Notes under the pieces: model-generated
Database searches by the model: none
The model's input: the letters and a program-made list of their open reading frames with translations, nothing else
Told to the model about the DNA's origin: nothing
Program-made: the position numbers and the translations under genes
NCBI GenBank assembly: GCA_049296095.1
Contig: JBAQRV010000001.1
Coordinates: forward strand, 30,001 to 62,000
DNA length: 32,000 nt
Direction: 5' to 3'
From: Candidatus Saccharimonadota bacterium
GTDB lineage: Bacteria > Patescibacteriota > Saccharimonadia > Saccharimonadales > Saccharimonadaceae
Part shown: positions 6,628-31,496 of the stretch, piece after piece
Numbering within the stretch: the stretch's first letter is position 1
Layout: each line of letters starts with the position of its first letter

Positions 6628-7392
6628 ATGACCAAACCAACCACAAAAGGCCTCAGAATCTTTAACTTTATCATGGCCGCCTTCCATGGTATTCAAGGTG
6701 TTATCATATTAATTATCAGTCGAAGCTTCGACGTCCCCATCACCGGTAGCTATCTGACGTTCGATAAGGCGACGCAGACGCTGGAGCCGGCCACGACTCA
6801 TCTGTTCGATCTGTCAATTCCGCTGTTGGTTGCACTGTTCTTCTTCTTGTCGGCAGCAGCGCATCTGTTTATCGCGACCGTCTATAACAGAAAATACAAC
6901 CAGGATCTGGCCAAGGGTATCAACAAGATTCGCTGGATTGAATATTCAGTTTCAGCCAGTCTTATGATGGTGGCTATTGCCGTGCTTGTTGGTGTGTATG
7001 ACTTTACGAACTTGTTGATGATCTTTGTCCTGATCGCTCTCATGAATCTCTTAGGTCTAGTGATGGAAGTTCACAACCAAACGACCAAGAAGACTAACTG
7101 GTTGAGTTACTGGCTGGGGTGCTTGGCGGGGATTGTGCCGTGGTTTGTGATTGGCTTTTACTTTTGGCTATCGGCCGAGCAGGGAAGTGCGCCTCCAGAC
7201 TTTGTCTATTGGATCTTCGTCTCGATCTTTGTCTTCTTTAACCTCTTTGCGATTAACATGGTGCTGCAGTACAAAAAGATTGGTCCTTGGAAAAACTATT
7301 TGTACGGCGAACGTGCGTATATCATCTTGAGTCTGGTCGCAAAAACTCTGCTGGCTTGGCAAGTATTTGCTGGCACGCTCCAACCTATGTAG
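6628..7392 (+). CDS. heliorhodopsin
   Basis: 254 aa, 7-TM. It aligns throughout with recalled HeR 48C12: FHGIQ (His23 equivalent), AAAHLF (His80), RWIEYSVSAS (counterion Glu107), CLAGIVPW, GERAYIILSLVAKTLLAWQVFAGTLQP. The Schiff-base Lys is K239 (codon 7342-7344). Confidence 0.88.
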   Translation: MTKPTTKGLRIFNFIMAAFHGIQGVIILIISRSFDVPITGSYLTFDKATQTLEPATTHLFDLSIPLLVALFFFLSAAAHLFIATVYNRKYNQDLAKGINKIRWIEYSVSASLMMVAIAVLVGVYDFTNLLMIFVLIALMNLLGLVMEVHNQTTKKTNWLSYWLGCLAGIVPWFVIGFYFWLSAEQGSAPPDFVYWIFVSIFVFFNLFAINMVLQYKKIGPWKNYLYGERAYIILSLVAKTLLAWQVFAGTLQPM

Positions 7393-8127: not shown

Positions 8128-9684
8128 GTGCCAGAAGACCAAAAGAAACAATTGCAGACACAACTTTGGAGTATTGCCAACGATCTTCGCGGCAAGATGG
8201 GTGCTGATGAATTCAGGGACTATATTCTTGGATTTATTTTCTATAAATATCTTTCTGAAAAGATGGAGCTCTATGCTGACGACCTACTTGAAACAGATGG
8301 TCTGAAATATGCTCAGATTGATGAAACTACTCCGAGGGCCAGTGAAATCATCGAAGCTGTTCAAGAAAATGCTGTCGACAAATTAGGTTATTTCTTAAAA
8401 CCAAACGAGCTGTTTACCCGAATCGCCGCGCATGGAACGGCGAGTGACAACTTAATTGAGGAGCTTGAACGAATCCTTAATAACATTCAAAACAGCACGA
8501 TGGGTCATGATAGTGAAGATGATTTTGAAAGCCTTTTCTCAGAGCTTGATCTTAACTCGCAACGTTTAGGAAAAACAGTCTCACAACGAGCAGAGCTGAT
8601 TGGTAAGGTCTTGGTACACTTGGATAAGATTGATTTTCAGCTACAAAATAGTACCATTGATGTCCTAGGTGATGCGTATGAATATCTCATCAGTCAGTTT
8701 GCATCGGGTGCGGGTAAAAAGGCTGGTGAATTTTATACTCCCCAGGAAGTCTCGACGGTCCTCGCGCGTATCGTGACAGATGGCAAGAAGAAATTAAAAA
8801 CCGTCTATGACCCGACGGCCGGATCGGGTTCCTTGTTGCTCCGTGTTGCTCGCTACGTCGAAGAAGTTGGTATGTTTTACGGACAAGAACTCAACAATAC
8901 GACCTACAACCTAGCACGTATGAACATGATTCTTCATGACGTGAATTACGATCGTTTTGATATCAAGCAAGAAGATACACTAGAACACCCACAACACCTG
9001 CAGTACAAATTTGAGGCGATTGTGGCTAACCCTCCATTTAGTGCTAACTGGTCGGCTGACCCAATTCACTTACAAGATGATCGCTTTAGTGGGTATGGTA
9101 AGTTAGCTCCAAGCAGCAAGGCGGATTATGCATTTATTCAGCATATGATTTATCAGCTTGATGAGAATGGCACGATGGCGGTGGTTATGCCTCATGGCGT
9201 ATTGTTCCGTGGCGGGGCAGAAGGGGTCATTCGTGAGTATCTGATTCGAGAAAAGAATTATTTAGATGCGGTGATTGGTTTGCCCGCAAACCTTTTCTTT
9301 GGAACTTCGATTCCTGCGACTATTCTAGTATTTAAGAAGTGCCGAAAAGATACCGGTCATATATTGTTTATTGACGCTAGCAAACATTTTGAAAAGGGCA
9401 AGAATCAGAATCGACTACGACAAGTTGATATCGATAAAATTATTAACACACTTGAATATCGCAAGTCTGTAGATAGATATAGTTACGTAGCGCCACTCAG
9501 CGAGATAAAAGAGAACGATTATAATCTAAACATTCCACGCTATGTTGATACATTTGAGGAAGAAGAAGAGATTGATCTGAATGCCGTGACAGAGGAAATC
9601 CGTAAGCTGGATACGGAGTCTTCAGAGTTAGATGCAAAGATTGCTAAATATACAAAGGAACTCGGCATACAGTCGCCGTATTAA
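8128..9684 (+). CDS. hsdM: type I restriction-modification system, DNA methyltransferase subunit M
   Basis: 518 aa. GTG start preceded by AGGGAG. N-terminal LWSIANDLRG helix, AdoMet motif VYDPTAGSGSLL and catalytic NPPF (IVANPPFS). Confidence 0.92.
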   Translation: MPEDQKKQLQTQLWSIANDLRGKMGADEFRDYILGFIFYKYLSEKMELYADDLLETDGLKYAQIDETTPRASEIIEAVQENAVDKLGYFLKPNELFTRIAAHGTASDNLIEELERILNNIQNSTMGHDSEDDFESLFSELDLNSQRLGKTVSQRAELIGKVLVHLDKIDFQLQNSTIDVLGDAYEYLISQFASGAGKKAGEFYTPQEVSTVLARIVTDGKKKLKTVYDPTAGSGSLLLRVARYVEEVGMFYGQELNNTTYNLARMNMILHDVNYDRFDIKQEDTLEHPQHLQYKFEAIVANPPFSANWSADPIHLQDDRFSGYGKLAPSSKADYAFIQHMIYQLDENGTMAVVMPHGVLFRGGAEGVIREYLIREKNYLDAVIGLPANLFFGTSIPATILVFKKCRKDTGHILFIDASKHFEKGKNQNRLRQVDIDKIINTLEYRKSVDRYSYVAPLSEIKENDYNLNIPRYVDTFEEEEEIDLNAVTEEIRKLDTESSELDAKIAKYTKELGIQSPY

Positions 9685-9687
9685 GCC

Positions 9688-10866
9688 ATGGGCCTCATCT
9701 CACAAGCTAAAGATATCTATATACCTAAACTACGCTTCTCCGAGTTTTATGATAAGTGGGAGGTTAAATCACTCTTAAGCGTAGTATCTTTTAGAAATGG
9801 CAAGCCTTTCGAAACTTTCGTCGAAGAGAACGGTAAGTATAAACTGATTACAATAGACTCAGTAGATATAAACGGTAAATTAAAGACAAAGTTCAAAACA
9901 GTAAATCAAGCAGACGGTTCTTTAAGTAAGAACGATATCATTATCGTGCTTAGTGATATCGCTCACGGCTACCTATTGGGGCGCTCATGTTTAATACCTG
10001 AAAATGATACTTTCGTGCTTAACCAACGAATGGGAAGGTTGAGGCCTAAGCAGAAAGATTCAGCCGCTTTTATCAGTTTGTATATAAATAACCACCAATA
10101 CTTTTTTAGAAGTAGAGGCCAGGGAACCTCGCAGAGACATATATATGAACGCGATATTAATCAATTTGAAATTAAATTACCATCGACTATTGAACAACAA
10201 AAAATTGCTGCATTTTTAACGACCATAGAGGATAAGCTGACAGTAGATGAGAATCAGTTAGACCTATTAAGGAAGTACAAAAAGAGTGTAGTAAAAAAAA
10301 TCTTTAGGCAAGAAATTCAGTTTATGAACGATGCAAATCAACCTTACCCTAAATGGGCTGAAGTAAAGATCGGTGATATAACACAGAATTATGATAATAA
10401 ACGAAAGCCTATATCTTCAGAATTACGTACGGCGGGCGAGTTTCCTTATTACGGCGCAAATGGCGTAGTTGATTATGTAGAGGATTACATATTCAATGGT
10501 GAGTATGTATTAGTGGCGGAAGATGGAGTGGTCGATATTTCTAAGTATCCAGTCCATTTTGTAAGGGGAAAATTCTGGGTTAATAATCATGCTCATGTTC
10601 TGCAAGGCAAGGATGTCGATAATATATTCTTGTACTATGTTTTGCACAGCACCAGGTTTGTAAAGTATATTACAGGTTCAGCGCAGACCAAGTTAAATAA
10701 TCAAATATTAAGAAGTATTAAAGTTACCATACCGATTGATGAAGGTGAACAGCGCAAAATAGCTGATTTTTTGTCTACGATAGACGCCAAGATTCAAATC
10801 GAAGAAGCAAAGCTGAGGGAATCAAAAAAGTTTAGAGCGGCCCTCGTGCAAAGGATGTTTGTATGA
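9688..10866 (+). CDS. hsdS: type I restriction-modification system, specificity subunit S
   Basis: 392 aa. Two variable target-recognition halves are each followed by the conserved spacer helix (EQQKIAAFLTTIEDKL and EQRKIADFLSTIDAKI). Confidence 0.9.
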   Translation: MGLISQAKDIYIPKLRFSEFYDKWEVKSLLSVVSFRNGKPFETFVEENGKYKLITIDSVDINGKLKTKFKTVNQADGSLSKNDIIIVLSDIAHGYLLGRSCLIPENDTFVLNQRMGRLRPKQKDSAAFISLYINNHQYFFRSRGQGTSQRHIYERDINQFEIKLPSTIEQQKIAAFLTTIEDKLTVDENQLDLLRKYKKSVVKKIFRQEIQFMNDANQPYPKWAEVKIGDITQNYDNKRKPISSELRTAGEFPYYGANGVVDYVEDYIFNGEYVLVAEDGVVDISKYPVHFVRGKFWVNNHAHVLQGKDVDNIFLYYVLHSTRFVKYITGSAQTKLNNQILRSIKVTIPIDEGEQRKIADFLSTIDAKIQIEEAKLRESKKFRAALVQRMFV

Positions 10867-11363
10867 GCAATGTTCAGCACGTTCTCTTCTATTCTCAAAT
10901 CACATTTGCAATGAATGCTGCACGGATACATAAATCATTGGCAATGGATAGAGAATTCAATAGAACAGAGCGCGAATTAATCACATACTCACAGGGTGTG
11001 ATGATTATTAACGCTGCAAAAATATGGGATAGAACAGGATATAATATAGAGAAATTTATACGCCAATCGAACGCGAAGGACGACGAGAAGGGTAGGCTAT
11101 TAAAAGGAGCATTGAAGATAAAAACGGGCCATCGGGTAACGATCGATAAGGTGAAATTGTGGCGAAATAAACTTATTGCTCACCTCGATAAAGATATGAA
11201 TACTACGGAGCAATTTAACGAATTTGACGGAGATGTTTCTGATATACAAATGATGATACAGGATGTTGCCGACCTTGTATCAAGCGCGAGTTGGTATCCT
11301 GAGAAGAATAGACCAATGACATTTCTCGACTATGACCAGATAAAAAGTGAGTTAAAACTATGA
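10863..11363 (+). CDS. small HEPN-motif protein (AbiU2-like) embedded between hsdS and hsdR
   Basis: 166 aa, predicted all-helical. The Rx4-6H motif is R101-NKLIA-H107 (WRNKLIAHLD, codons 11163-11183). ATGA overlaps at both ends (10863-10866 and 11360-11363). Confidence 0.55.
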   Translation: MSNVQHVLFYSQITFAMNAARIHKSLAMDREFNRTERELITYSQGVMIINAAKIWDRTGYNIEKFIRQSNAKDDEKGRLLKGALKIKTGHRVTIDKVKLWRNKLIAHLDKDMNTTEQFNEFDGDVSDIQMMIQDVADLVSSASWYPEKNRPMTFLDYDQIKSELKL

Positions 11364-14218
11364 CCACCCAATCCGAACAGTCCCTTGAAAACGAACTTCT
11401 TACCCAACTCCAGGGCTTGAAATACGAGCGTATCATCATTTCGGACGAGGCGAGCCTGGTTGCCAATCTTCGTACTCAAATAGAAAAGCACAACAATATT
11501 ACACTTACCGATAAAGAATTCACAAAAATTCTCAACCATCTCAGCAAGGGTAATGTCTACGAACGTGCTAAGATCCTGCGTGATAAATTTCATCTCATTC
11601 GCGATGATGGAAAGACGCCGCTCTACATAGAATTCTTTAATTCTCGTGACTGGTGTCACAACGAATTTCAAGTTACCAATCAAGTAACTGTCGAAGGAAG
11701 CTACAAGAACCGCTACGATGTCACTATTCTCATCAATGGTTTACCTCTTGTACAAATAGAGTTGAAGCGCAACGGACTTGGTTTAAAAGAAGCGTTCAAC
11801 CAGACGAATCGTTACCAGCGCCATAGCTACGATGCAAGTTATGGTCTTTTCCAATATATTCAAATGTTTGTTATTAGTAACGGCTCTAATACCAAATACT
11901 ATGCCAATAATCGAAAGCAAGATTTTAAGTTTACTTCATTCTGGACGGACGTAGATAACAACAAGATTACAGAACTTCATGAGTTTACTGATGTTTTCCT
12001 CGATCGATGTCACGTTGCAAAAATGATCGCCAAATATACTGTGCTGACAGAAGCAAGGACATTAATGTTGCTTCGGCCATATCAATACTACGCAGTGGAG
12101 AAAATTGTAGATCGAGTAAAGAATAGCACCAAAGGTGGTTATATATGGCACACCACAGGAAGTGGGAAGACCCTTACCTCCTTTAAAGCTAGTCAGATCC
12201 TGGTTGACCTTCCCGAGATTTATAAAGTAGTCTTTGTCGTTGACCGAAATGACTTGGATACCCAGACCATACGTGAATTTAATGAATTCCGAAAAGACAG
12301 TGTCGATAGCACTGACAGTACGCGTAACCTAGTGAAGCAGTTCGGTGATCCGGATACGAAGCTTATTGTCACCACGATTCAAAAACTCAACAATGCAATC
12401 ACAAACGACCGACACGCTCTAAAAATGGATAAACTGCGTGACGAAAAGGTAGTATTTATCTTTGATGAATGTCATCGTAGCCAGTTCGGTGAGACACATA
12501 AAAAGATCACCGAATACTTCACTAATCATCAGCTATTCGGATTCACGGGGACGCCTATCTTTGCCGAGAATGCCAGTGGTAACGGCCTGGGTAAGCGCAC
12601 GACAGCGGACCTATTCGGAGAAAAGCTCCATAGCTATGTCATTACTGACGCAATTGGAGATGAGAATGTCTTGAAGTTTGCAGTGGAGTACGTAGGTAAA
12701 TATAAATACAAAGACGGGAGTGCGAATAATGTTGATATTGACGTCGAGGCAATAGACAAAAAAGAATTAATGGAATCACCGCAACGGCTTGAGAAGATAG
12801 TTGATTATATTTTGGATTATCACGCGGCCAAGACCTATAACTGTGATTACTCGGCCATCTTTGCAGTCAGTAACGTCGACACCCTTACTAAATATTACGA
12901 GATTTTTAAGGCCAAACAAGCAGGACTCGATCGACCACTCCGTATTGCAACTATCTTTAGCTATGCAGCAAACGAGGATGATAAAGACGCTAACGGTATG
13001 CTCGATGCTGATATCGATATAACGACAAGCGGTCCGATCAATCAACATTCTCGCGATAAGTTAGAGAGTTATATTGCGGACTATAATGCGCAATTCGGGA
13101 CAAACTACACAACGAAAGATAGTAAGAGTTTTTATAGCTACTATCGAGACATTGGGCAGAAGCTAAAGAATCGTGAGAAGACTGACTTACCAGAAGATCG
13201 AATAGACATCCTACTGGTGGTCAATATGTTCCTGACGGGATTTGATGCGAAAAAAGTAAATACGCTCTACGTTGACAAGAATTTGCGTTACCATGGGTTA
13301 TTGCAGGCTTACTCACGGACAAATCGAATTATTAATGAAACGAAATCCCAGGGTAATATTGTTGTATTCCGTAACTTAAAAGAAGCGACTGATGACGCCC
13401 TTGCGTTGTTTGCAGATAAGAATGCGAATGAGACGATCTTCATTGAGCCTTACGAGCACCACATTGTTGCCTTTAATGCTGCGCTCGCACATCTCCTCCA
13501 ACTGACTCCTTCTCCGGCCGATGTCGATAGATTGGTAGGGGAACAGGCAGAGCTTGATTTTGTGACTGCATTCCGTGAGTTACTGCGACTCAAGAATACA
13601 CTTATTACTTTCGCGGATTTCACCTTTGATCACACTGGCATATCAGAGCAAGTCTTCGAAAGCTTTAAGAGCAAGTATCTCGATATCTATGCCAAGGTTC
13701 GTCATGAGCATGAACCCGAGAAAGTCTCTATCTTAAATGATGTTGACTTTGAGCTAGAGCTTATTCGTCGTGACGACGTGAACGTCGATTATATCCTAAG
13801 GCTCTTAACGCAATTAGTCGGCGCGTCAGGCGAGGACAAGACTCGCTTAATCCGTAATATTTTCTCAACCATGTCCGGTGACCCTGTACTGCGAAGTAAA
13901 CGAGACTTAATTGAAAAGTTTATTAACGGGACAATTCCTAAGATCAGCGACAGAGAAGAGGTTGAGAGTGCATTCGAAAACTTTTGGTCAGTGGAGCGTG
14001 CCGACGCTTTAAAACGTATAAGTGATGAAGAGGGTGCGGTCAGTGAGAAATTAGAGAAGCTGGTAGAAGACTATATATTTACCAATCGAAAGCCACGACG
14101 GTCGGATCTTGTGAATGCGCTGGTCAAGAAGCCAGGCATTTTGCAAATAAATGGCATCCTCAAGCGACTTAATGCAAAATTTAGTGACTATCTAGAGACG
14201 TTCGTAGATGGTGCTTAG
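11360..14218 (+). CDS. hsdR: type I restriction enzyme, endonuclease/translocase subunit R (EcoR124-like, type IC by recollection)
   Basis: 952 aa. N-terminal PD-(D/E)xK core YDVTILINGLPLVQIELKR, Walker A TTGSGKT, DEAH-type FDECHRSQ and FVISNGSNTKYYANN. Confidence 0.92.
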   Translation: MTTQSEQSLENELLTQLQGLKYERIIISDEASLVANLRTQIEKHNNITLTDKEFTKILNHLSKGNVYERAKILRDKFHLIRDDGKTPLYIEFFNSRDWCHNEFQVTNQVTVEGSYKNRYDVTILINGLPLVQIELKRNGLGLKEAFNQTNRYQRHSYDASYGLFQYIQMFVISNGSNTKYYANNRKQDFKFTSFWTDVDNNKITELHEFTDVFLDRCHVAKMIAKYTVLTEARTLMLLRPYQYYAVEKIVDRVKNSTKGGYIWHTTGSGKTLTSFKASQILVDLPEIYKVVFVVDRNDLDTQTIREFNEFRKDSVDSTDSTRNLVKQFGDPDTKLIVTTIQKLNNAITNDRHALKMDKLRDEKVVFIFDECHRSQFGETHKKITEYFTNHQLFGFTGTPIFAENASGNGLGKRTTADLFGEKLHSYVITDAIGDENVLKFAVEYVGKYKYKDGSANNVDIDVEAIDKKELMESPQRLEKIVDYILDYHAAKTYNCDYSAIFAVSNVDTLTKYYEIFKAKQAGLDRPLRIATIFSYAANEDDKDANGMLDADIDITTSGPINQHSRDKLESYIADYNAQFGTNYTTKDSKSFYSYYRDIGQKLKNREKTDLPEDRIDILLVVNMFLTGFDAKKVNTLYVDKNLRYHGLLQAYSRTNRIINETKSQGNIVVFRNLKEATDDALALFADKNANETIFIEPYEHHIVAFNAALAHLLQLTPSPADVDRLVGEQAELDFVTAFRELLRLKNTLITFADFTFDHTGISEQVFESFKSKYLDIYAKVRHEHEPEKVSILNDVDFELELIRRDDVNVDYILRLLTQLVGASGEDKTRLIRNIFSTMSGDPVLRSKRDLIEKFINGTIPKISDREEVESAFENFWSVERADALKRISDEEGAVSEKLEKLVEDYIFTNRKPRRSDLVNALVKKPGILQINGILKRLNAKFSDYLETFVDGA

Positions 14219-14807: not shown

Positions 14808-15008
14808 ATGATTACGTCAAAAAATGCACGTAGAGAAAAAGCGGTTTCGGCAGCAATTTGGTCAGTCAAAGCTGAGGGGTTACGTTCTTCAAAAAGTGCC
14901 AGCCGCAATCTAAAACAATACGCATCTGGCAAGATATCCGCCAAACAACTTCGCACTAATACGACACTCCATGTCCAGTCTGTTGTTATGCGCCACACCG
15001 TTAAATAA
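14808..15008 (+). CDS. VbhA-type antitoxin (Fic inhibitory module)
   Basis: 66 aa. It contains the inhibitory motif [S/T]xxxE[G/N] as S-VKA-E-G (WSVKAEGL; compare VbhA SQRLEGL). It ends 3 nt before the Fic gene. Confidence 0.7.
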   Translation: MITSKNARREKAVSAAIWSVKAEGLRSSKSASRNLKQYASGKISAKQLRTNTTLHVQSVVMRHTVK

Positions 15009-15011
15009 CTT

Positions 15012-15632
15012 ATGACGTACGATGTAGAGAACGATCCTTATATCGATAAGGATACTAAAATTCTTCGGAATATCTTTGGTCTCGCCGACCAGAAAGCATT
15101 AGATGAAGTTGAATTCTCTATAACCTCGACTGAAATTGCTATCCTTGAAGAATATATTATTGATGGTGGCTTTGATCTTGATCATTTGTGTAGGATTCAC
15201 AAACAAATATTTGGCCAGTTATATGATTGGGCGGGCGAAATTCGGACTGTTGATATGGCAAAGGATAAAACTCGTTTCGCTCACGCTGAGCATATCGTGG
15301 CCTATGCGAGCGACTTGTTTACACAACTCGAACAAGAGAAGTATCTCAAAGGATTAGTAGAGGGTGATTTTATTGAACGGTTCTCCCATTATTACTCTGA
15401 GGTAAATATTTTACATCCGTTTCGTGAAGGTAACGGTCGTACGCAGAGGGCATTTTTTACATTACTGGCTAGATATAATGGTTACCACGTAGCCTGGGAT
15501 CAAATGAACCAGAATGATAATATAGCCGCCAGTATTGCAGCATACAACGGTGACGAAGGCCCTTTGATTGAAATACTGTATCCATTACTAGAATGGGTCC
15601 ACGAAGAGTATTGGAATATACACCCGCATTAA
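15012..15632 (+). CDS. Fic-domain toxin (class I, FicT/VbhT-like AMP-transferase)
   Basis: 206 aa. Canonical Fic motif HPFREGNGRTQR, with the upstream FGQLYDWAGEIRTVDMAK region. Confidence 0.88.
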   Translation: MTYDVENDPYIDKDTKILRNIFGLADQKALDEVEFSITSTEIAILEEYIIDGGFDLDHLCRIHKQIFGQLYDWAGEIRTVDMAKDKTRFAHAEHIVAYASDLFTQLEQEKYLKGLVEGDFIERFSHYYSEVNILHPFREGNGRTQRAFFTLLARYNGYHVAWDQMNQNDNIAASIAAYNGDEGPLIEILYPLLEWVHEEYWNIHPH

Positions 15633-15682: not shown

Positions 15683-16663
15683 ATGAGACCTTTCATCGAA
15701 CGCAAAACCAACACCAATAACTTCACCTACTACAGAAAGGGCCGCAAGGTTACGGATGAGTCGACACTCAAGCGGATCGAGTCATTTGCGATTCCTCCTG
15801 CTTGGTCCGATGTTCAGATCGCGGTCAATCCACGCGCTAAGATCCAGGTCGAGGGGCGCGACGCTGCAGGAAAAAAGCAATATATTTACAGTCACCACCA
15901 CATTGCCCAGCAGCACGCCGCCAAGTTCGATCGTACCGTTCAGTTTGCTTTGAAGCTGCCGACCATGCGTCGTAGAGTTAAGAAAGATTTAAAGAATCGA
16001 AAGTATAATAAGGACAAGATCCTGGCCTGTACGGTCGCCTTACTCGACAGGACCTACCTACGAGTTGGCAATGAAAAGTATGCCAAAAAGAATGCTAGCT
16101 ATGGCTTGACAACACTTCGACGCAAGCACGTCTCAGTGAAAGATGACCGAGTCGTGTTTGATTTCATCGGCAAGAGCGGCAAGCACCAGCACACCGAAGT
16201 GAAGGATAAGGAGATCGCGCGTATCGTTAAGAAACTCGACGACATGCCTGGTTATGAAATCTTTCGTTACTATAATGAAAAGAACGAACTGGTCGATTTG
16301 AAGAGCGATGATGTCAATGAATACATCCGAACCATCATGGGGCCAGATTTTTCTGCCAAAGACTTCCGTACCTGGGGCGGGACGATGCTGGCGGCACTCG
16401 AGCTTTCCAGTACCGTTCGACCCGATGACGCGGCGACCCGTAAGCGCATGATGATCGATTGTGTCGAAACAGTTGCGCGTGAACTAGGCAATACACCTGC
16501 AGTTGCGCGCAGCTCTTATATCGACCCGTATATCTTTACTCAATATGAAAAATCTAATGACATTGCGAGGGTCTTTAGTCGCATCAAGAAGCTCCGAAAG
16601 ACGCAGTATCTTAGTAAGGATGAGCAGTGTGTGATTAAGTTGCTCAGTAAAAAACAGGCCTAG
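15683..16663 (+). CDS. DNA topoisomerase IB (poxvirus-like bacterial type)
   Basis: 326 aa. N-terminal FAIPPAWSDVQI, a catalytic region with AKDFRTWGGT, and the active-site Tyr motif ARSSYIDP. Confidence 0.8.
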   Translation: MRPFIERKTNTNNFTYYRKGRKVTDESTLKRIESFAIPPAWSDVQIAVNPRAKIQVEGRDAAGKKQYIYSHHHIAQQHAAKFDRTVQFALKLPTMRRRVKKDLKNRKYNKDKILACTVALLDRTYLRVGNEKYAKKNASYGLTTLRRKHVSVKDDRVVFDFIGKSGKHQHTEVKDKEIARIVKKLDDMPGYEIFRYYNEKNELVDLKSDDVNEYIRTIMGPDFSAKDFRTWGGTMLAALELSSTVRPDDAATRKRMMIDCVETVARELGNTPAVARSSYIDPYIFTQYEKSNDIARVFSRIKKLRKTQYLSKDEQCVIKLLSKKQA

Positions 16664-19555: not shown

Positions 19556-19629
19556 GGCGCCTTGGCCGAGAAGTTAGGCAACACTCTGCAAAAGTGTGAA
19601 GACGGGAGCGTTACCCGTAGGTGCCTCCA
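19556..19629 (+). tRNA. tRNA-Cys (GCA) with atypical D and T loops
   Basis: 74 nt. Acceptor GGCGCCT/AGGTGCC, discriminator U73 plus encoded CCA, anticodon arm ACACT-CTGCAAA-AGTGT. The D-loop AGAAGTT lacks GG and the T-loop AGCGTTA lacks TTC. TATAAT at 19541-19546 lies upstream. Confidence 0.6.
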
Positions 19630-19651
19630 TAATAATACTTGACAAAAGTAC

Positions 19652-19738
19652 GCGCGGGTGGTGTAATCGGTAGCCACGAGAGACTTAAAATCTCTTGATC
19701 GAAAGATCGTGCGGGTTCAAGTCCCGCCCCGCGCACCA
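19652..19738 (+). tRNA. tRNA-Leu (UAA)
   Basis: 87 nt. Acceptor GCGCGGG/CCCGCGC, anticodon loop CTTAAAA, long variable arm TGATCGAAAGATCGT, T-arm GCGGG-TTCAAGT-CCCGC, A73 plus encoded CCA. Confidence 0.93.
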
Positions 19739-26127: not shown

Positions 26128-26436
26128 TTACCAGCTACGCTGACGGAATGATCCGCCTGCGTTGTCGCCGCCACGTGGACGGTCCTCTTTAGGTCGGGCT
26201 AGGCTAACGTTAATTGGACGTCCGTCTAGTTCCTTCCCATTGAGCTGATCAACTGCTTTTTGGTTGTTAGCTTCGTCGACAAATTCAACGAAACCAAAAC
26301 CCTTTGAACGACCGGTTTCGCGGTCAGACACAACACGTGCGCTGGCGACTTCGCCGATAGTTTCAAAGAAAGCCTTCAAGCTGTCATCGTTAGTTGCGTA
26401 AGCAAGGCTACCGATAAATAGATTTTGTGATGCCAT
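26128..26436 (-). CDS. RRM-type RNA-binding protein with Gly/Arg-rich tail
   Basis: 102 aa. RNP-2 is LFIGSLAY and RNP-1 is KGFGFVEF. Confidence 0.9.
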   Translation of the reverse strand: MASQNLFIGSLAYATNDDSLKAFFETIGEVASARVVSDRETGRSKGFGFVEFVDEANNQKAVDQLNGKELDGRPINVSLARPKEDRPRGGDNAGGSFRQRSW

Positions 26437-28565: not shown

Positions 28566-31496
28566 ATGCAGCGATATAATCCGGCCGAAATTGAGCCGAA
28601 GTGGCAAAAAGTTTGGGAAGACCAAAAAGCCAATGAGGTAACGAATGATACGTCTAAAGTGAAGACGTATGTTTCGGGTATGTTCCCGTATCCTAGTGGC
28701 GCTGGTATGCATACTGGGCACGCTTTCTCTTGGGCGATCGTTGATGCGATTGCTCGTTTCCATCGCCAACACGGCGAAGCAGTCCTCAACCCAATTGGCT
28801 GGGACACGTTTGGATTACCAGCTGAAAACTATGCCATTAAAACTGGGACAGCACCTGCCAAAGTAACCGCCGAGAATATCGCCAACTTCAAGAACCAATT
28901 CAAACGGATGGGTGTCAGTATTGATTGGTCCCGTGAGATTAATACCAGCGATCCTGAATACTATCGTTGGACGCAGTGGGTATTCACGAAATTATTTGAG
29001 CGTGGCCTCGCCTACCAAAAGGAAAGCTTGCAATGGTGGTGCCCGGTAGATAAAACTGTCCTGGCTAACGAGCAAGTCGAAGGCGGTCATTGTTGGCGCT
29101 GTGGCAGTTTGGTTGAAAAGAAATCGATGAAGCAGTGGTTTTTCAAAATCACTGAATATGCCGATGCTTTGTTGGATGAAATTGAAGACCTCGATTGGCC
29201 GCAGAAGATCAAGACGGCTCAGACGAATTGGATTGGAAAGTCTGTGGGTGCTGAGATTGAATTTGCACTCTCGGAAACGGCTTCGCTCCCGGAATCTGAC
29301 GATTCTGGGGCTGCAGATGCTTCCTCAACTGTAAATTCAATCCCAGCTATCACAGTCTTCACCACACGACCGGATACAATCTTCGGGGCTACTTTCTTAG
29401 TATTAGCTCCCGAGCATCCACTAGTTGAGTCTTTAGGTGTGGGGGATTTTAAGGAATTCACCGAAAAGTATGTCAAAGAGGCAATTAAGAAATCTGAGAT
29501 CGAACGTACTAATGATACCAAGGAAAAGACAGGTGTCTTTACGGGTAGCTATGCAATTAACCCAGCGACGGGCGAGAAGGTACCGATTTGGGTAGCTGAC
29601 TATGTGCTCGGGGGTTATGGTACTGGCGCGATTATGGCCGTTCCTGGACACGATGAGCGGGACTTCGCCTTCGCCGAGAAGTATAGCTTGCCGATTGTGA
29701 CTGTTGTTGAACCAGTCTTTGGTGAGCCGCAAGGTGATGAAACGCATAAGGTTGGCGTCAATGTGATTGTGCGTGATCCTCGGACTGACAAAGTGATTGT
29801 TCTGGACTGGGGTCCACGCAAGGAGCGTTTTGGTGGCCGTATGTTGATTGGCGGTGGCGTTGATGGCGATGAAGACGTCGTCGAATGTGCGATTCGTGAA
29901 ATTGCCGAGGAAACTGGGTATACGGACGTGCGCTTGGTTTCGCGATCTGATGTTATTGGCCATGGCTATTTCTATTCAAACGTCAAAGAGAAGAACTATT
30001 CGATCGATGCTCATGGATTGTATTTTGAACTTGTCAGTGATGCTAAAGATGCGACCAATATGGACGACGGTGAAGTTGGCAAGTTCGAGGTGACGTGGCA
30101 GCCAACTAACCAGGTTGCGGCTCAGCTCGATGATGGCATTCACCGTTACTTCTTTGAAACGCTTGTCGAGAAAAAGATTTATCACGGCGAAGGACTGCTT
30201 GTGAATAGTGGCGAGTTTGACGGCATGCCAACCAGCGATGCGCGTGAAGAAATTGTTGCTTGGCTTGAACAGCAGAAACTTGGCCGCAGCAAGACTACCT
30301 ACAAGATGCGCGATTGGCTGATTAGCCGTCAGCGCTATTGGGGTGCGCCGATTCCGATTATTCATTGTCCAGAGCACGGTGCGGTGGCGGTACCTGAAGA
30401 TCAGCTTCCTGTCATCCTGCCTGAAATTGAAGACTACGCACCAAAAGGTGATGGTCTGTCGGCACTGGCTCGGGCAACAGATTGGGTCAATACGACTTGT
30501 CCTGAATGTGGTGGTCCTGCAAAGCGCGAAACCGACACGATGGACGGCTATGCATGTAGTAGCTGGTATTTACTTCGGTATACCGACCCGCATAATGCAG
30601 CGCGGGCTTGGGACCCTGAAGTCGCTAACTACTGGAATCCTGTCGACTTTTACGTTGGTGGTGACCACGCGGTGGCTCATTTGCTCTACGTTCGTTTCTG
30701 GACGCACGTTTTCCACGAGATGGGACTGGTGAACTTTAAAGAACCAGTCAAAAAGTTAATTTATCACGGCTATATTAACGCCGAAGATGGCTCAAAGATG
30801 AGTAAGAGCAAGGGTAATGTGGTGGATCCACTTGATGTGATCGACCAGGGCTATGGCGCTGATGCACTGAGAACTTATTTGCTCTTCATGGGCCCGATTG
30901 AACTCGATGCTAGCTGGGATTCTCATGGTATCGCTGGTGTCTACCGATTCTTGAACCGTATCTGGACACTCGCTCAGCAGTATCAATCTGCCGAGAAGAA
31001 TATTACCAAGAATGATGCCGCGATCCGCGTTGCCCAACACAAAACGATCAAGAAGGTGACTGATGATTTCCGTCGGCTGAGTTTTAACACGGCAATTTCT
31101 GGCCTGATGGAATATGTGAACGATCTCTACAAGTTTAAGATCGATGGATTTTCCGAAGAAGTCTGGACTGAAGCATTAAAGACCCTCGTCCAGTTAGTGG
31201 CGCCGTTCGCACCACACATGGCTGATGAGTTGTGGAGTCAATTTGGTGAGCAAGGCCTCGTCCAAAATGCCGCTTGGCCACAGTGGGATGATGCCCTGAC
31301 AACCGAGGATATGATCACGATTGCTGTCCAGGTGAATGGTAAATTGAGAGGCGAGATTTCAATTGCCAAGGATCTCGACGCTGAAGCAGTGAAATCACTT
31401 GCCCTGGCACATGAGAATGTCGCTAAGTTTGTTGGTGAACAAAAACCGACCAAGGTGATTTATGTTCCTGGTCGGTTGGTGAGCGTTGTACTGTAG
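28566..31496 (+). CDS. leuS: leucyl-tRNA synthetase with an inserted Nudix domain
   Basis: 976 aa. HIGH-type PYPSGAGMHTGHAF, KMSKS, and CP1 editing motifs TTRPDT and GTGAIMAVPGHDERD. RDWLISRQRYWGAPIP is present. A Nudix box lies at 29853-29921. Confidence 0.95.
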   Translation: MQRYNPAEIEPKWQKVWEDQKANEVTNDTSKVKTYVSGMFPYPSGAGMHTGHAFSWAIVDAIARFHRQHGEAVLNPIGWDTFGLPAENYAIKTGTAPAKVTAENIANFKNQFKRMGVSIDWSREINTSDPEYYRWTQWVFTKLFERGLAYQKESLQWWCPVDKTVLANEQVEGGHCWRCGSLVEKKSMKQWFFKITEYADALLDEIEDLDWPQKIKTAQTNWIGKSVGAEIEFALSETASLPESDDSGAADASSTVNSIPAITVFTTRPDTIFGATFLVLAPEHPLVESLGVGDFKEFTEKYVKEAIKKSEIERTNDTKEKTGVFTGSYAINPATGEKVPIWVADYVLGGYGTGAIMAVPGHDERDFAFAEKYSLPIVTVVEPVFGEPQGDETHKVGVNVIVRDPRTDKVIVLDWGPRKERFGGRMLIGGGVDGDEDVVECAIREIAEETGYTDVRLVSRSDVIGHGYFYSNVKEKNYSIDAHGLYFELVSDAKDATNMDDGEVGKFEVTWQPTNQVAAQLDDGIHRYFFETLVEKKIYHGEGLLVNSGEFDGMPTSDAREEIVAWLEQQKLGRSKTTYKMRDWLISRQRYWGAPIPIIHCPEHGAVAVPEDQLPVILPEIEDYAPKGDGLSALARATDWVNTTCPECGGPAKRETDTMDGYACSSWYLLRYTDPHNAARAWDPEVANYWNPVDFYVGGDHAVAHLLYVRFWTHVFHEMGLVNFKEPVKKLIYHGYINAEDGSKMSKSKGNVVDPLDVIDQGYGADALRTYLLFMGPIELDASWDSHGIAGVYRFLNRIWTLAQQYQSAEKNITKNDAAIRVAQHKTIKKVTDDFRRLSFNTAISGLMEYVNDLYKFKIDGFSEEVWTEALKTLVQLVAPFAPHMADELWSQFGEQGLVQNAAWPQWDDALTTEDMITIAVQVNGKLRGEISIAKDLDAEAVKSLALAHENVAKFVGEQKPTKVIYVPGRLVSVVL

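Follow-up and report, generated by a model that had tools for sequence, protein, structure and literature searches.

A HEPN gene of the AbiU2 type at the hsdS-hsdR junction of a type IC-like restriction-modification operon of a Saccharibacteria bacterium

Results and discussion

Organization of the locus

A stretch of 32,000 nucleotides of the genome of a Candidatus Saccharimonadota bacterium (assembly GCA_049296095.1, contig JBAQRV010000001.1, positions 30,001 to 62,000 of the forward strand), hereafter referred to as the window, contains a type I restriction-modification (R-M) operon with an additional gene between those for its specificity and restriction subunits. All coordinates given below are those of the window, unless another contig is named. 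The operon is located on the forward strand. Its first gene, hsdM (8128–9684), codes for a type I methyltransferase subunit of 518 amino acids, which matched the Pfam families N6_Mtase (365 bits) and HsdM_N as well as the NCBIfam model TIGR00497 (457.9 bits), and the translation of which carries the NPPF motif ('ANPPFS'). The second gene, hsdS (9688–10866), codes for a specificity subunit of 392 amino acids with two target recognition domains, which matched Pfam Methylase_S in two stretches (158.9 bits) and the PADLOC model Specificity_I. The last gene, hsdR (11360–14218), codes for a restriction/translocase subunit of 952 amino acids, in which the Pfam domains HSDR_N, SWI2_SNF2, T1R_D3-like, and EcoR124_C (198.9 bits) were retrieved. 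Its Walker A motif (GSGKT), DECH box, and D...ExK nuclease motif, as read from the translation, are intact, and its best match among the PDB sequences was HsdR of EcoR124I/II (2w00/4be7; phmmer, E = 2e-174, residues 3–755). Since EcoR124I/II is the type IC archetype, the label 'type IC-like' is justified. Indeed, the genes follow the order hsdM-hsdS-hsdR and encode intact catalytic motifs, as in type IC systems (EcoR124I/EcoprrI type). The type IC-like assignment of an earlier, first-pass annotation, made from the sequence of the window without database searches, is thus borne out by both the EcoR124_C domain and the EcoR124I match. Judged from its motifs, the restriction system looks intact.

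The additional gene is an open reading frame (ORF) of 166 amino acids with an ATG start (10863–11363, forward strand), predicted to code for a solo HEPN protein of the AbiU2 family and hence for a metal-independent endoribonuclease. It is joined to both of its neighbors by an ATGA overlap. The stop codon of hsdS overlaps with the start codon of the HEPN gene (10863–10866, forward strand; '...tttgtATGAgc...'), the stop codon of which overlaps in turn with the start codon of hsdR (11360–11363, forward strand; '...aaactATGAcc...'). In addition, a Shine-Dalgarno-like AAGGA is found 7 nucleotides 5' of the ATG of the HEPN gene. The first-pass annotation had given these coordinates and junctions correctly in every detail. 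The coupled expression that it had proposed on their basis agrees with the conservation of the 4-bp overlaps in orthologous operons on other contigs, the first overlap being present in contigs L012, L013, and L018 and the second one in L011, L013, and L018. Similarly, the C-terminus of HsdS ('...QRMFV*') and the junction 'GGATGTTTGTATGA' are kept in L012, L013, and L018. Promoter and terminator predictions for the operon were not used as evidence, as the promoter count equaled the shuffle expectation and the terminator-like matches were situated within coding regions.

An NCBI protein annotated as 'MAG: hypothetical protein [Candidatus Microsaccharimonas sp.]' (MAG, metagenome-assembled genome) is 100% identical to the HEPN ORF; the longest contig on which it is encoded measures 710 kb. 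Comparison with a homologue of 69% identity yielded proportions of nonsynonymous (pN) and synonymous (pS) differences of 0.19 and 0.90, respectively; at this pS value synonymous sites are saturated, so that pN and pS are contrasted here and no dN/dS ratio is given. This contrast indicates that the HEPN gene is under purifying selection. Together with a Pfam match, 22 representative homologues, and the invariant residues R101 and H107, all described below, the low pN relative to pS implies that the ORF is not a chance reading frame. Two ORFs on the opposite strand (11215–11466 and 11330–11683) were taken as shadows of the coding frames.

The G+C content amounts to 0.37–0.43 over the R-M operon, approximately 0.40–0.46 in the left half of the window, and 0.47–0.51 in most of its right half. 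This contrast is consistent with a horizontal acquisition of the region encompassing the R-M operon, the HEPN gene, and a Fic module located downstream.

Family assignment and conserved residues

The ORF matched the Pfam family HEPN_AbiU2 (PF18734) over residues 48–144, with a score of 37.9 bits (gathering cutoff, 26.8; E = 1.6e-9). This match spans positions 54–170 of the profile, which has a length of 193. Among 1.84 billion cluster representatives searched exhaustively with HMMER, 22 homologues with E ≤ 1e-3 were retrieved, and a word-based comparison with 5.8 billion proteins returned only three close relatives. PF18734 was matched independently by all 27 homologues collected (E ≤ 0.01). 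On the basis of its sequence, the ORF is a true member of HEPN_AbiU2, which agrees with the resemblance to AbiU2-type proteins noticed in the first-pass annotation. The members of the subfamily are solo proteins of 149–201 amino acids, with one fragment of 68 amino acids among the 22. A length of 166 amino acids is therefore normal for a solo AbiU2-type HEPN protein, and the earlier designation of the ORF as 'mini' was abandoned.

Within AbiU2, the sequence data indicate that the subfamily of the ORF is rare and divergent. A search of PHROGs resulted in a weak match only, to a family of unknown function (E = 0.015). Plasmid and phage sequences searched by tblastn with the ORF gave no match, and a related-locus search of genome and metagenome contigs with an alignment of eight sequences gave no confirmed relatives.

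As described by Anantharaman et al. (2013; PMC3710099), the HEPN active site consists of an Rx4-6H motif, a polar residue after the arginine, and a second conserved acidic residue located upstream. The sequence WRNKLIAHLD, reported in the first-pass annotation, is present in the translation of the ORF and contains the HEPN catalytic motif in its Rx5H form (R101-N-K-L-I-A-H107; 11163–11183, forward strand), with R101 encoded by cga (11163–11165) and H107 by cac (11181–11183). Both residues are invariant among the 27 homologues, at a mean column identity of the alignment of approximately 33%, and they are separated by five residues in every homologue. Residue 102 is polar, as expected for HEPN proteins (N in 14, H in 8, S in 2, K in 2, and D in 1 of the homologues). 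The upstream acidic residue is D56 (codon at 11028–11030, forward strand), the last residue of 'AKIWD', which is conserved in 26 of the 27 homologues; K53 is conserved in 24. Their common context, 'AK[IL][WF]D', is not the typical Ex3[KR].

An AlphaFold2 model built from the 27 sequences is all-helical, with a predicted local distance difference test (pLDDT) score of 89.5 and a predicted template modeling score of 0.86. It consists of five long helices (residues 2–26, 34–53, 73–89, 91–107, and 125–140) and three short ones (62–67, 115–119, and 157–163). A model built from an alignment of three sequences (pLDDT, 59.9) was set aside. In a Foldseek comparison of the former model with PDB, the matches of highest probability were the HEPN toxins HepT (6m6u_H, 0.77) and SO_3166 (5yep_C, 0.66), with template modeling scores of 0.46–0.57 and E-values of approximately 1, which are not significant. 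A profile search of the PDB sequences recovered the HEPN structure 3jrt at a marginal E-value of 0.013 over approximately 56 aligned positions. In this alignment, 'KKLRNHCVAHVSDK' of 3jrt is paired with the family consensus 'kklRnklvAHldkk', with the catalytic motif in register; 3jrt was not among the top 50 Foldseek matches. De novo coiled coils and fibrinogen, which headed the profile search, were discarded as compositional or coiled-coil artefacts, and the only match of a direct phmmer search of PDB with the ORF, a spectrin, was judged spurious. The comparison with HEPN families that the first-pass annotation had recommended thus gave, for the profile, the Pfam match to AbiU2 and, for the structure, Foldseek similarities to HEPN folds that were not significant. 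The HEPN identity of the ORF is firm from sequence and weakly supported by comparison with the HEPN core fold, which is all-alpha with four up-and-down helices.

Genomic context of homologues

The genomic context was read for 12 homologues, the flanking genes being verified with Pfam, PADLOC, and NCBIfam. The close subfamily (35–69% identity to the ORF) comprised nine members with a resolved context, the window included; P0012 (on the short contig L020), P0003, and P0009 were left out of this count. Five of the nine occurred within type I operons. In the window, P0006 (L013–15), and P0010 (L018), the HEPN gene is located between hsdS and hsdR with both ATGA overlaps. P0002 (L012) is located after the C-terminus of HsdS ('...LLQRMFV*'), with the same overlap, and is followed by the gene for a membrane protein of 213 amino acids. 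P0004 (L011) is part of the arrangement hsdM, DUF4145/PD-T7-4-like gene, hsdS, AriA/PtuA-like ABC ATPase gene, HEPN gene, and hsdR. A sixth member, P0011, adjoins genes for a CcrM-like methyltransferase and a Sau3AI/MutH-like endonuclease (type II R-M), so that six of the nine are located beside some R-M system. The remaining three (P0005, P0007, and P0008) were found directly 3' of the glycine--tRNA ligase gene (glyS), without R-M genes. Finally, three distant relatives (16–22% identity) were located outside type I operons, one of them approximately 3 kb from an EcoRII/Dcm/Vsr cluster. The gene is thus not always nested at the hsdS-hsdR junction, a question raised by the first-pass annotation; five of the nine close homologues are found there, but not the glyS-linked ones, the one by the type II R-M genes, and the distant relatives.

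Glycine--tRNA ligase-linked and R-M-linked copies are interleaved in a neighbor-joining tree. In the four operons bearing the HEPN gene that were compared, the N-termini of HsdR are 70–75% identical and the HEPN proteins 36–47% identical. These identities indicate that the type I operons with the HEPN gene belong to a single lineage of cassettes, the middle gene of which evolves fast.

Several of these loci contain further genes. In L011 (1–5790), three genes are embedded in the operon, namely a DUF4145 HEPN gene (PD-T7-4-like) between hsdM and hsdS, a gene for an AriA/NsnB/PtuA/GajA-like ABC ATPase (465 amino acids) between hsdS and hsdR, and, after a gap of 13 nucleotides, the AbiU2 homologue. 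By analogy, the latter pair resembles a PrrC split in two genes or a Septu/PARIS-like combination of a sensor with a HEPN effector. The idea that such a pair was ancestral and that the copy in the window is its decayed remnant was rejected, as all catalytic residues and the overlaps have been kept in three operons without the ATPase (the window, L013, and L018) and in L012, and as P0004 is placed within a group of ATPase-less members by the tree. On the contig of the closest homologue, L012, the HEPN gene is followed not by hsdR but by the gene for the above-mentioned protein of 213 amino acids (625–1266), which possesses an N-terminal hydrophobic segment, had no Pfam or PADLOC match, and may be a further embedded gene product. 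The glyS-linked homologues (L016, 5522–5995; L017, 1512–2051; and P0005 on a contig of JGI 3300041967) are 41–45% identical to the ORF and have intact catalytic residues. Two of them overlap with the 3' end of glyS by 17–29 nucleotides, and a YbaK/tRNA_edit protein is encoded among the next genes near one of them. The recurrent coupling of glyS with the HEPN gene could point to a tRNA-related target. The distant AbiU2 homologue P0023 (L001, 2719–3297; also in L002–L005) is preceded by a gene of 192 codons for a protein with a ROS/MucR zinc finger and DUF4145 (HEPN), forming a pair of two HEPN genes with a divergent Fic gene upstream; this locus was found on 14 contigs.

The HEPN gene occupies the position of prrC, at the hsdS-hsdR junction of a type IC-like locus, not only in the window, as had been claimed, but also in four further operons. 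In the EcoprrI locus (prrA-prrB-prrC-prrD), PrrC likewise belongs to the HEPN superfamily, contains an R...H pair, and is encoded in the hsdS-hsdR slot of a type IC-like operon; by analogy, a second-line defense role is plausible for the ORF too. A PrrC-like guard mechanism would imply that the HEPN protein is held latent on HsdM2S1(R2) and freed as an anticodon nuclease or other ribonuclease (RNase) only once the type IC enzyme has been disabled by an anti-restriction factor of a phage. The protein would then be a minimal functional analogue of PrrC that lacks the ATPase. Besides the shared slot, which harbors five of the nine close homologues, such a mechanism is favored by the two-sided translational coupling kept in orthologous operons, suggesting stoichiometric co-production, by the fact that a toxin without a visible antitoxin must be silenced somehow, and by the ABC ATPase gene directly before the homologue in L011, reminiscent of a split PrrC. 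The three glyS-linked homologues, which have kept their catalytic residues without R-M genes, argue against an obligate dependence, as do the distant family members outside type I R-M operons. Moreover, the ORF belongs to the AbiU2 family and, unlike PrrC and RloC, has no fused N-terminal ABC (Rad50/SbcC-like) ATPase. Indeed, HEPN_AbiU2 is its sole domain match and its sequence contains no P-loop motif, which confirms what the first-pass annotation had remarked, whereas the regulation of PrrC needs the ABC ATPase domain (PMC3710099). PrrC is embedded almost exclusively in type I R-M systems (Payne et al. 2024; bioRxiv 10.1101/2024.01.29.577857), whereas the subfamily of the ORF is also found by glyS and by type II R-M genes. 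Finally, TgvAB of Vibrio, likewise encoded within a type I operon, defends independently of HsdR. Altogether, a PrrC-like guard function is considered rather unlikely.

The hsdS-hsdR junction in orthologous cassettes

With the N-terminus of HsdR as a probe, 80 orthologous cassettes (L021–L100; 62–77% identity) were fetched from species-representative genomes. Their hosts belong to the Bacteroidota, Cyanobacteria, Patescibacteria, Acidobacteriota, and others, the cassette family being subject to horizontal transfer between phyla. No homologue of the HEPN ORF was found in the 80 cassettes (best match, E = 0.2). The hsdS gene was visible 5' of hsdR in 66 of them. Counting as an insert at least one same-strand ORF of at least 100 amino acids between the two genes, hsdS and hsdR were adjacent in 10 cassettes, separated by an insert in 52, and separated by a gap without a qualifying ORF in four. 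The 80 inserted ORFs comprised Abi_2 (7), DUF3800 (7), PIN (5), Uma2 (4), AAA_15/AAA_21 ATPases (4), UvrD helicases (3), and Abi_C (3); HepT-like proteins, Fic proteins, two PD-(D/E)xK families, and Schlafen/AlbA_2 were represented by two each, and integrases and IS200 transposases occurred as well. The 25 most frequent Pfam families leave about half of the inserted ORFs uncovered. As 52 of the 66 cassettes hold other cargo and none holds the HEPN gene of the window, the hsdS-hsdR slot is a cargo hotspot, in which this gene is a rare cargo type and several others stem from other HEPN families. Many of the cassettes also have inserts between hsdM and hsdS.

This variety of cargo, with dozens of unrelated types in the same slot, further reduces the support for a PrrC-like guard, as position alone is no sign of physical gating. 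It also bears on the possibility that the HEPN gene is a selfish addiction or stabilization toxin that hitch-hikes in the R-M cassette and acts post-segregationally, without a direct anti-phage role. The slot indeed hosts classic toxins of toxin-antitoxin systems (PIN, HepT, and Fic), the cassette family is mobile across phyla, the G+C content of the R-M region (0.37–0.43) is below that of the right half of the window (0.47–0.50), and a VbhA-Fic toxin-antitoxin pair is located approximately 600 bp downstream. Against such a role, no cognate antitoxin gene was found, neither an MNT gene nor a small upstream ORF. Furthermore, type I R-M systems by themselves are not strongly addictive. Although addiction and defense are not mutually exclusive, a purely selfish function is therefore regarded as highly unlikely.

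Comparison with known systems

Genes for AbiU2 HEPN proteins have been recorded before in R-M operons (Anantharaman et al. 2013; PMC3710099, Table 1). In that study, at least 16 HEPN clades were linked to R-M systems, three-level loci combining R-M, HEPN, and DOC genes were described, and it was proposed, by analogy with PrrC-PrrI, that the RNase is checked by the R-M system and freed once restriction is neutralized. More recently, RM, BREX, and DISARM systems have been catalogued as harboring thousands of embedded genes, under the notion of 'guilt by embedding' (Payne et al. 2024; 10.1101/2024.01.29.577857). Hence, the first-pass description of the ORF as an undescribed kind of R-M backup does not hold, since both the occurrence of AbiU2 in R-M operons and the analogy with PrrC were published in 2013 and embedding was generalized in 2024. 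What stands of that interpretation is the HEPN/AbiU2 identity, the Rx5H motif, the type IC-like slot, and the coupling with the neighboring genes; 'undescribed' and 'mini' do not. Literature matches combining HEPN with hsdR and hsdS were strain genotypes only.

The closest known system with respect to family is AbiU2/AbiUii of Lactococcus lactis AbiU (PF18734; Dai et al. 2001). The ORF shares with it the family match, the format of a solo HEPN protein of approximately 170–200 amino acids, the Rx4-6H motif, and the partnership with a DNA-targeting, restriction-type nuclease. They differ in the partner, which is a type IC HsdMSR complex in the case of the ORF and not an AbiU1-type nuclease, and in the host, a MAG of the Saccharibacteria (Candidate Phyla Radiation). 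No AbiU1-like gene (DUF262/ParB-like) is present in the window, where the neighbors are hsdM, hsdS, and hsdR; a pairing with AbiU1 is a trait of the archetype and not of the Pfam family. A third alternative follows from this archetype, namely that the HEPN protein tunes its DNase partner. It could do so by acting on the polycistronic hsd mRNA, through cleavage or binding, and thereby set the level of HsdR, with an effect on restriction alleviation or on the control of establishment; alternatively, it could be an RNA binder without catalytic activity. Indeed, AbiUi resembles a restriction endonuclease, so that the archetypal AbiU2 is likewise partnered with a DNA nuclease, and AbiUii reduces AbiUi-mediated resistance (PMC13064643). 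In the window, moreover, the HEPN gene is immediately 5' of hsdR and translationally coupled to it. The fact that the complete catalytic set, consisting of R, the polar residue, H, and the upstream D, is strictly conserved favors catalysis, and the glyS-linked homologues have no nuclease partner to tune. In addition, the 10 of 66 cassettes with an empty junction and the unrelated cargo of most others indicate that the regulation of the cassette does not need the HEPN gene. A modulator function is hence the least probable of the alternatives considered.

Other HEPN effectors are found within DNA-targeting immune operons as well, such as HEC-08 (DUF3644 HEPN, embedded in Hma), PD-T7-4/DUF4145, and Abi_2 (AbiD/F), and some of the orthologous cassettes bear Abi_2, Abi_C, or HepT-like genes at exactly this hsdS-hsdR position. 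Their families differ from AbiU2; HEC-08 possesses zinc-ribbon domains and HepT is usually accompanied by an MNT antitoxin. Defense by the embedded HEC-08 is lost when the histidine of its motif is mutated (10.1101/2024.01.29.577857), and gating by the surrounding system has been shown for none of the HEC-08, PD-T7-4/DUF4145, and Abi_2-type embedded HEPN genes. The closest solved structure by profile, 3jrt, is that of the integron-cassette HEPN protein Vpc_cass2, listed as a HEPN family in PMC3710099. It shares R-N-x4-H with the ORF, within 'KKLRNxxVAH', and is encoded in an integron cassette rather than in an R-M context.

Proposed function

The reading preferred here, with moderate confidence, is that the ORF encodes a second-line HEPN RNase effector, co-expressed with the R-M system, autonomous or only loosely coupled to it, and benefiting from the linkage. 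The HEPN gene would be transcribed on one mRNA with the genes for HsdM, HsdS, and HsdR. Its sequence suggests a metal-independent endoribonuclease, which, by analogy with other HEPN RNases, may be active as a dimer in which the Rx4-6H site is composite. An infection getting past restriction may then lead to an abortive-type cleavage of host or phage RNA (tRNA, rRNA, or mRNA). In the slot, the gene would be one of many interchangeable toxin or defense cargoes and gain co-transfer and co-expression with the R-M system. Since it is also found by glyS or by type II R-M genes, the trigger of its product probably lies in the protein itself or in the state of infection and does not strictly depend on HsdMSR.

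Several observations weigh against this second-line effector function. First, the ORF matched none of the PADLOC or NCBIfam models. Second, Foldseek comparison of its model with PDB and BFVD yielded no match at E ≤ 1e-3. Third, no antitoxin or regulator is visible around the HEPN gene, neither MNT nor a small upstream ORF, which leaves the avoidance of self-toxicity unexplained. Fourth, the context sample is small (n = 9 close homologues) and consists mostly of short metagenomic contigs. Fifth, in the literature searched, no AbiU2-family protein has been demonstrated as an RNase or phage-resistance factor. Lastly, according to a review (PMC13064643), Lactococcus AbiUi suffices alone, and addition of the HEPN protein AbiUii lowers resistance.

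A bolder version of the guard mechanism would make the ORF a minimal, ATPase-less guardian of the R-M system, docked on the type IC HsdM/S(R), kept inactive there, and freed as an RNase by a phage anti-restriction protein. The ATPase of L011 and the glyS variants would then represent alternative 'holders', the coupling with glyS hinting at a tRNA-directed activity. This version is considered decidedly unlikely.

Other features of the window

A toxin-antitoxin module is located approximately 600 bp 3' of hsdR (14808–15632, forward strand). It consists of a gene for a VbhA-type antitoxin of 66 amino acids (PF18495) and, 4 nucleotides further, one for a Fic/DOC toxin of 206 amino acids with the motif HPFREGNGR; Fic genes were also found in the hsdS-hsdR slot of two orthologous cassettes, as listed above. 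The module is adjoined by a gene for a type IB topoisomerase (15683–16663, forward strand; Topoisom_I and Top1B_N_bact). Just 5' of the R-M operon, a heliorhodopsin gene (6628–7392, forward strand; PF18761, 335 bits) precedes genes for a CsoR-like metal-sensing repressor and for a rhodanese. Genes for tRNA-Cys and tRNA-Leu are present at 19556–19738, and an RRM_1 RNA-binding protein of 102 amino acids is encoded at 26128–26436 (reverse strand). The leucyl-tRNA synthetase gene (28566–31496, forward strand; 976 amino acids) codes for an enzyme with an unusual architecture, as a NUDIX domain (PF00293; E = 2.2e-13, residues 394–531) is inserted directly behind the editing domain.

Conclusions

The ORF between hsdS and hsdR is a new, divergent, and rare AbiU2-type HEPN member in an R-M operon, and a largely expected example of a known pattern of backup defense. 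HEPN RNases as a backup of R-M systems are not a new concept, as it dates from 2013 and was generalized in 2024. With variable toxin or defense cargo at approximately 79% of the hsdS-hsdR junctions, the cassette family constitutes a natural library for discovery through 'guilt by embedding'. An AbiU2 member with a clean phenotype would fill a gap in the knowledge of this family, as even the role of its Lactococcus archetype is unclear. Few defense systems have been recognized in the episymbiotic Saccharibacteria, the phage interactions of which are only starting to be studied. If its predicted activity is real, the ORF would represent a compact, ATPase-less HEPN effector that a member of these bacteria expresses together with a type IC restriction enzyme.

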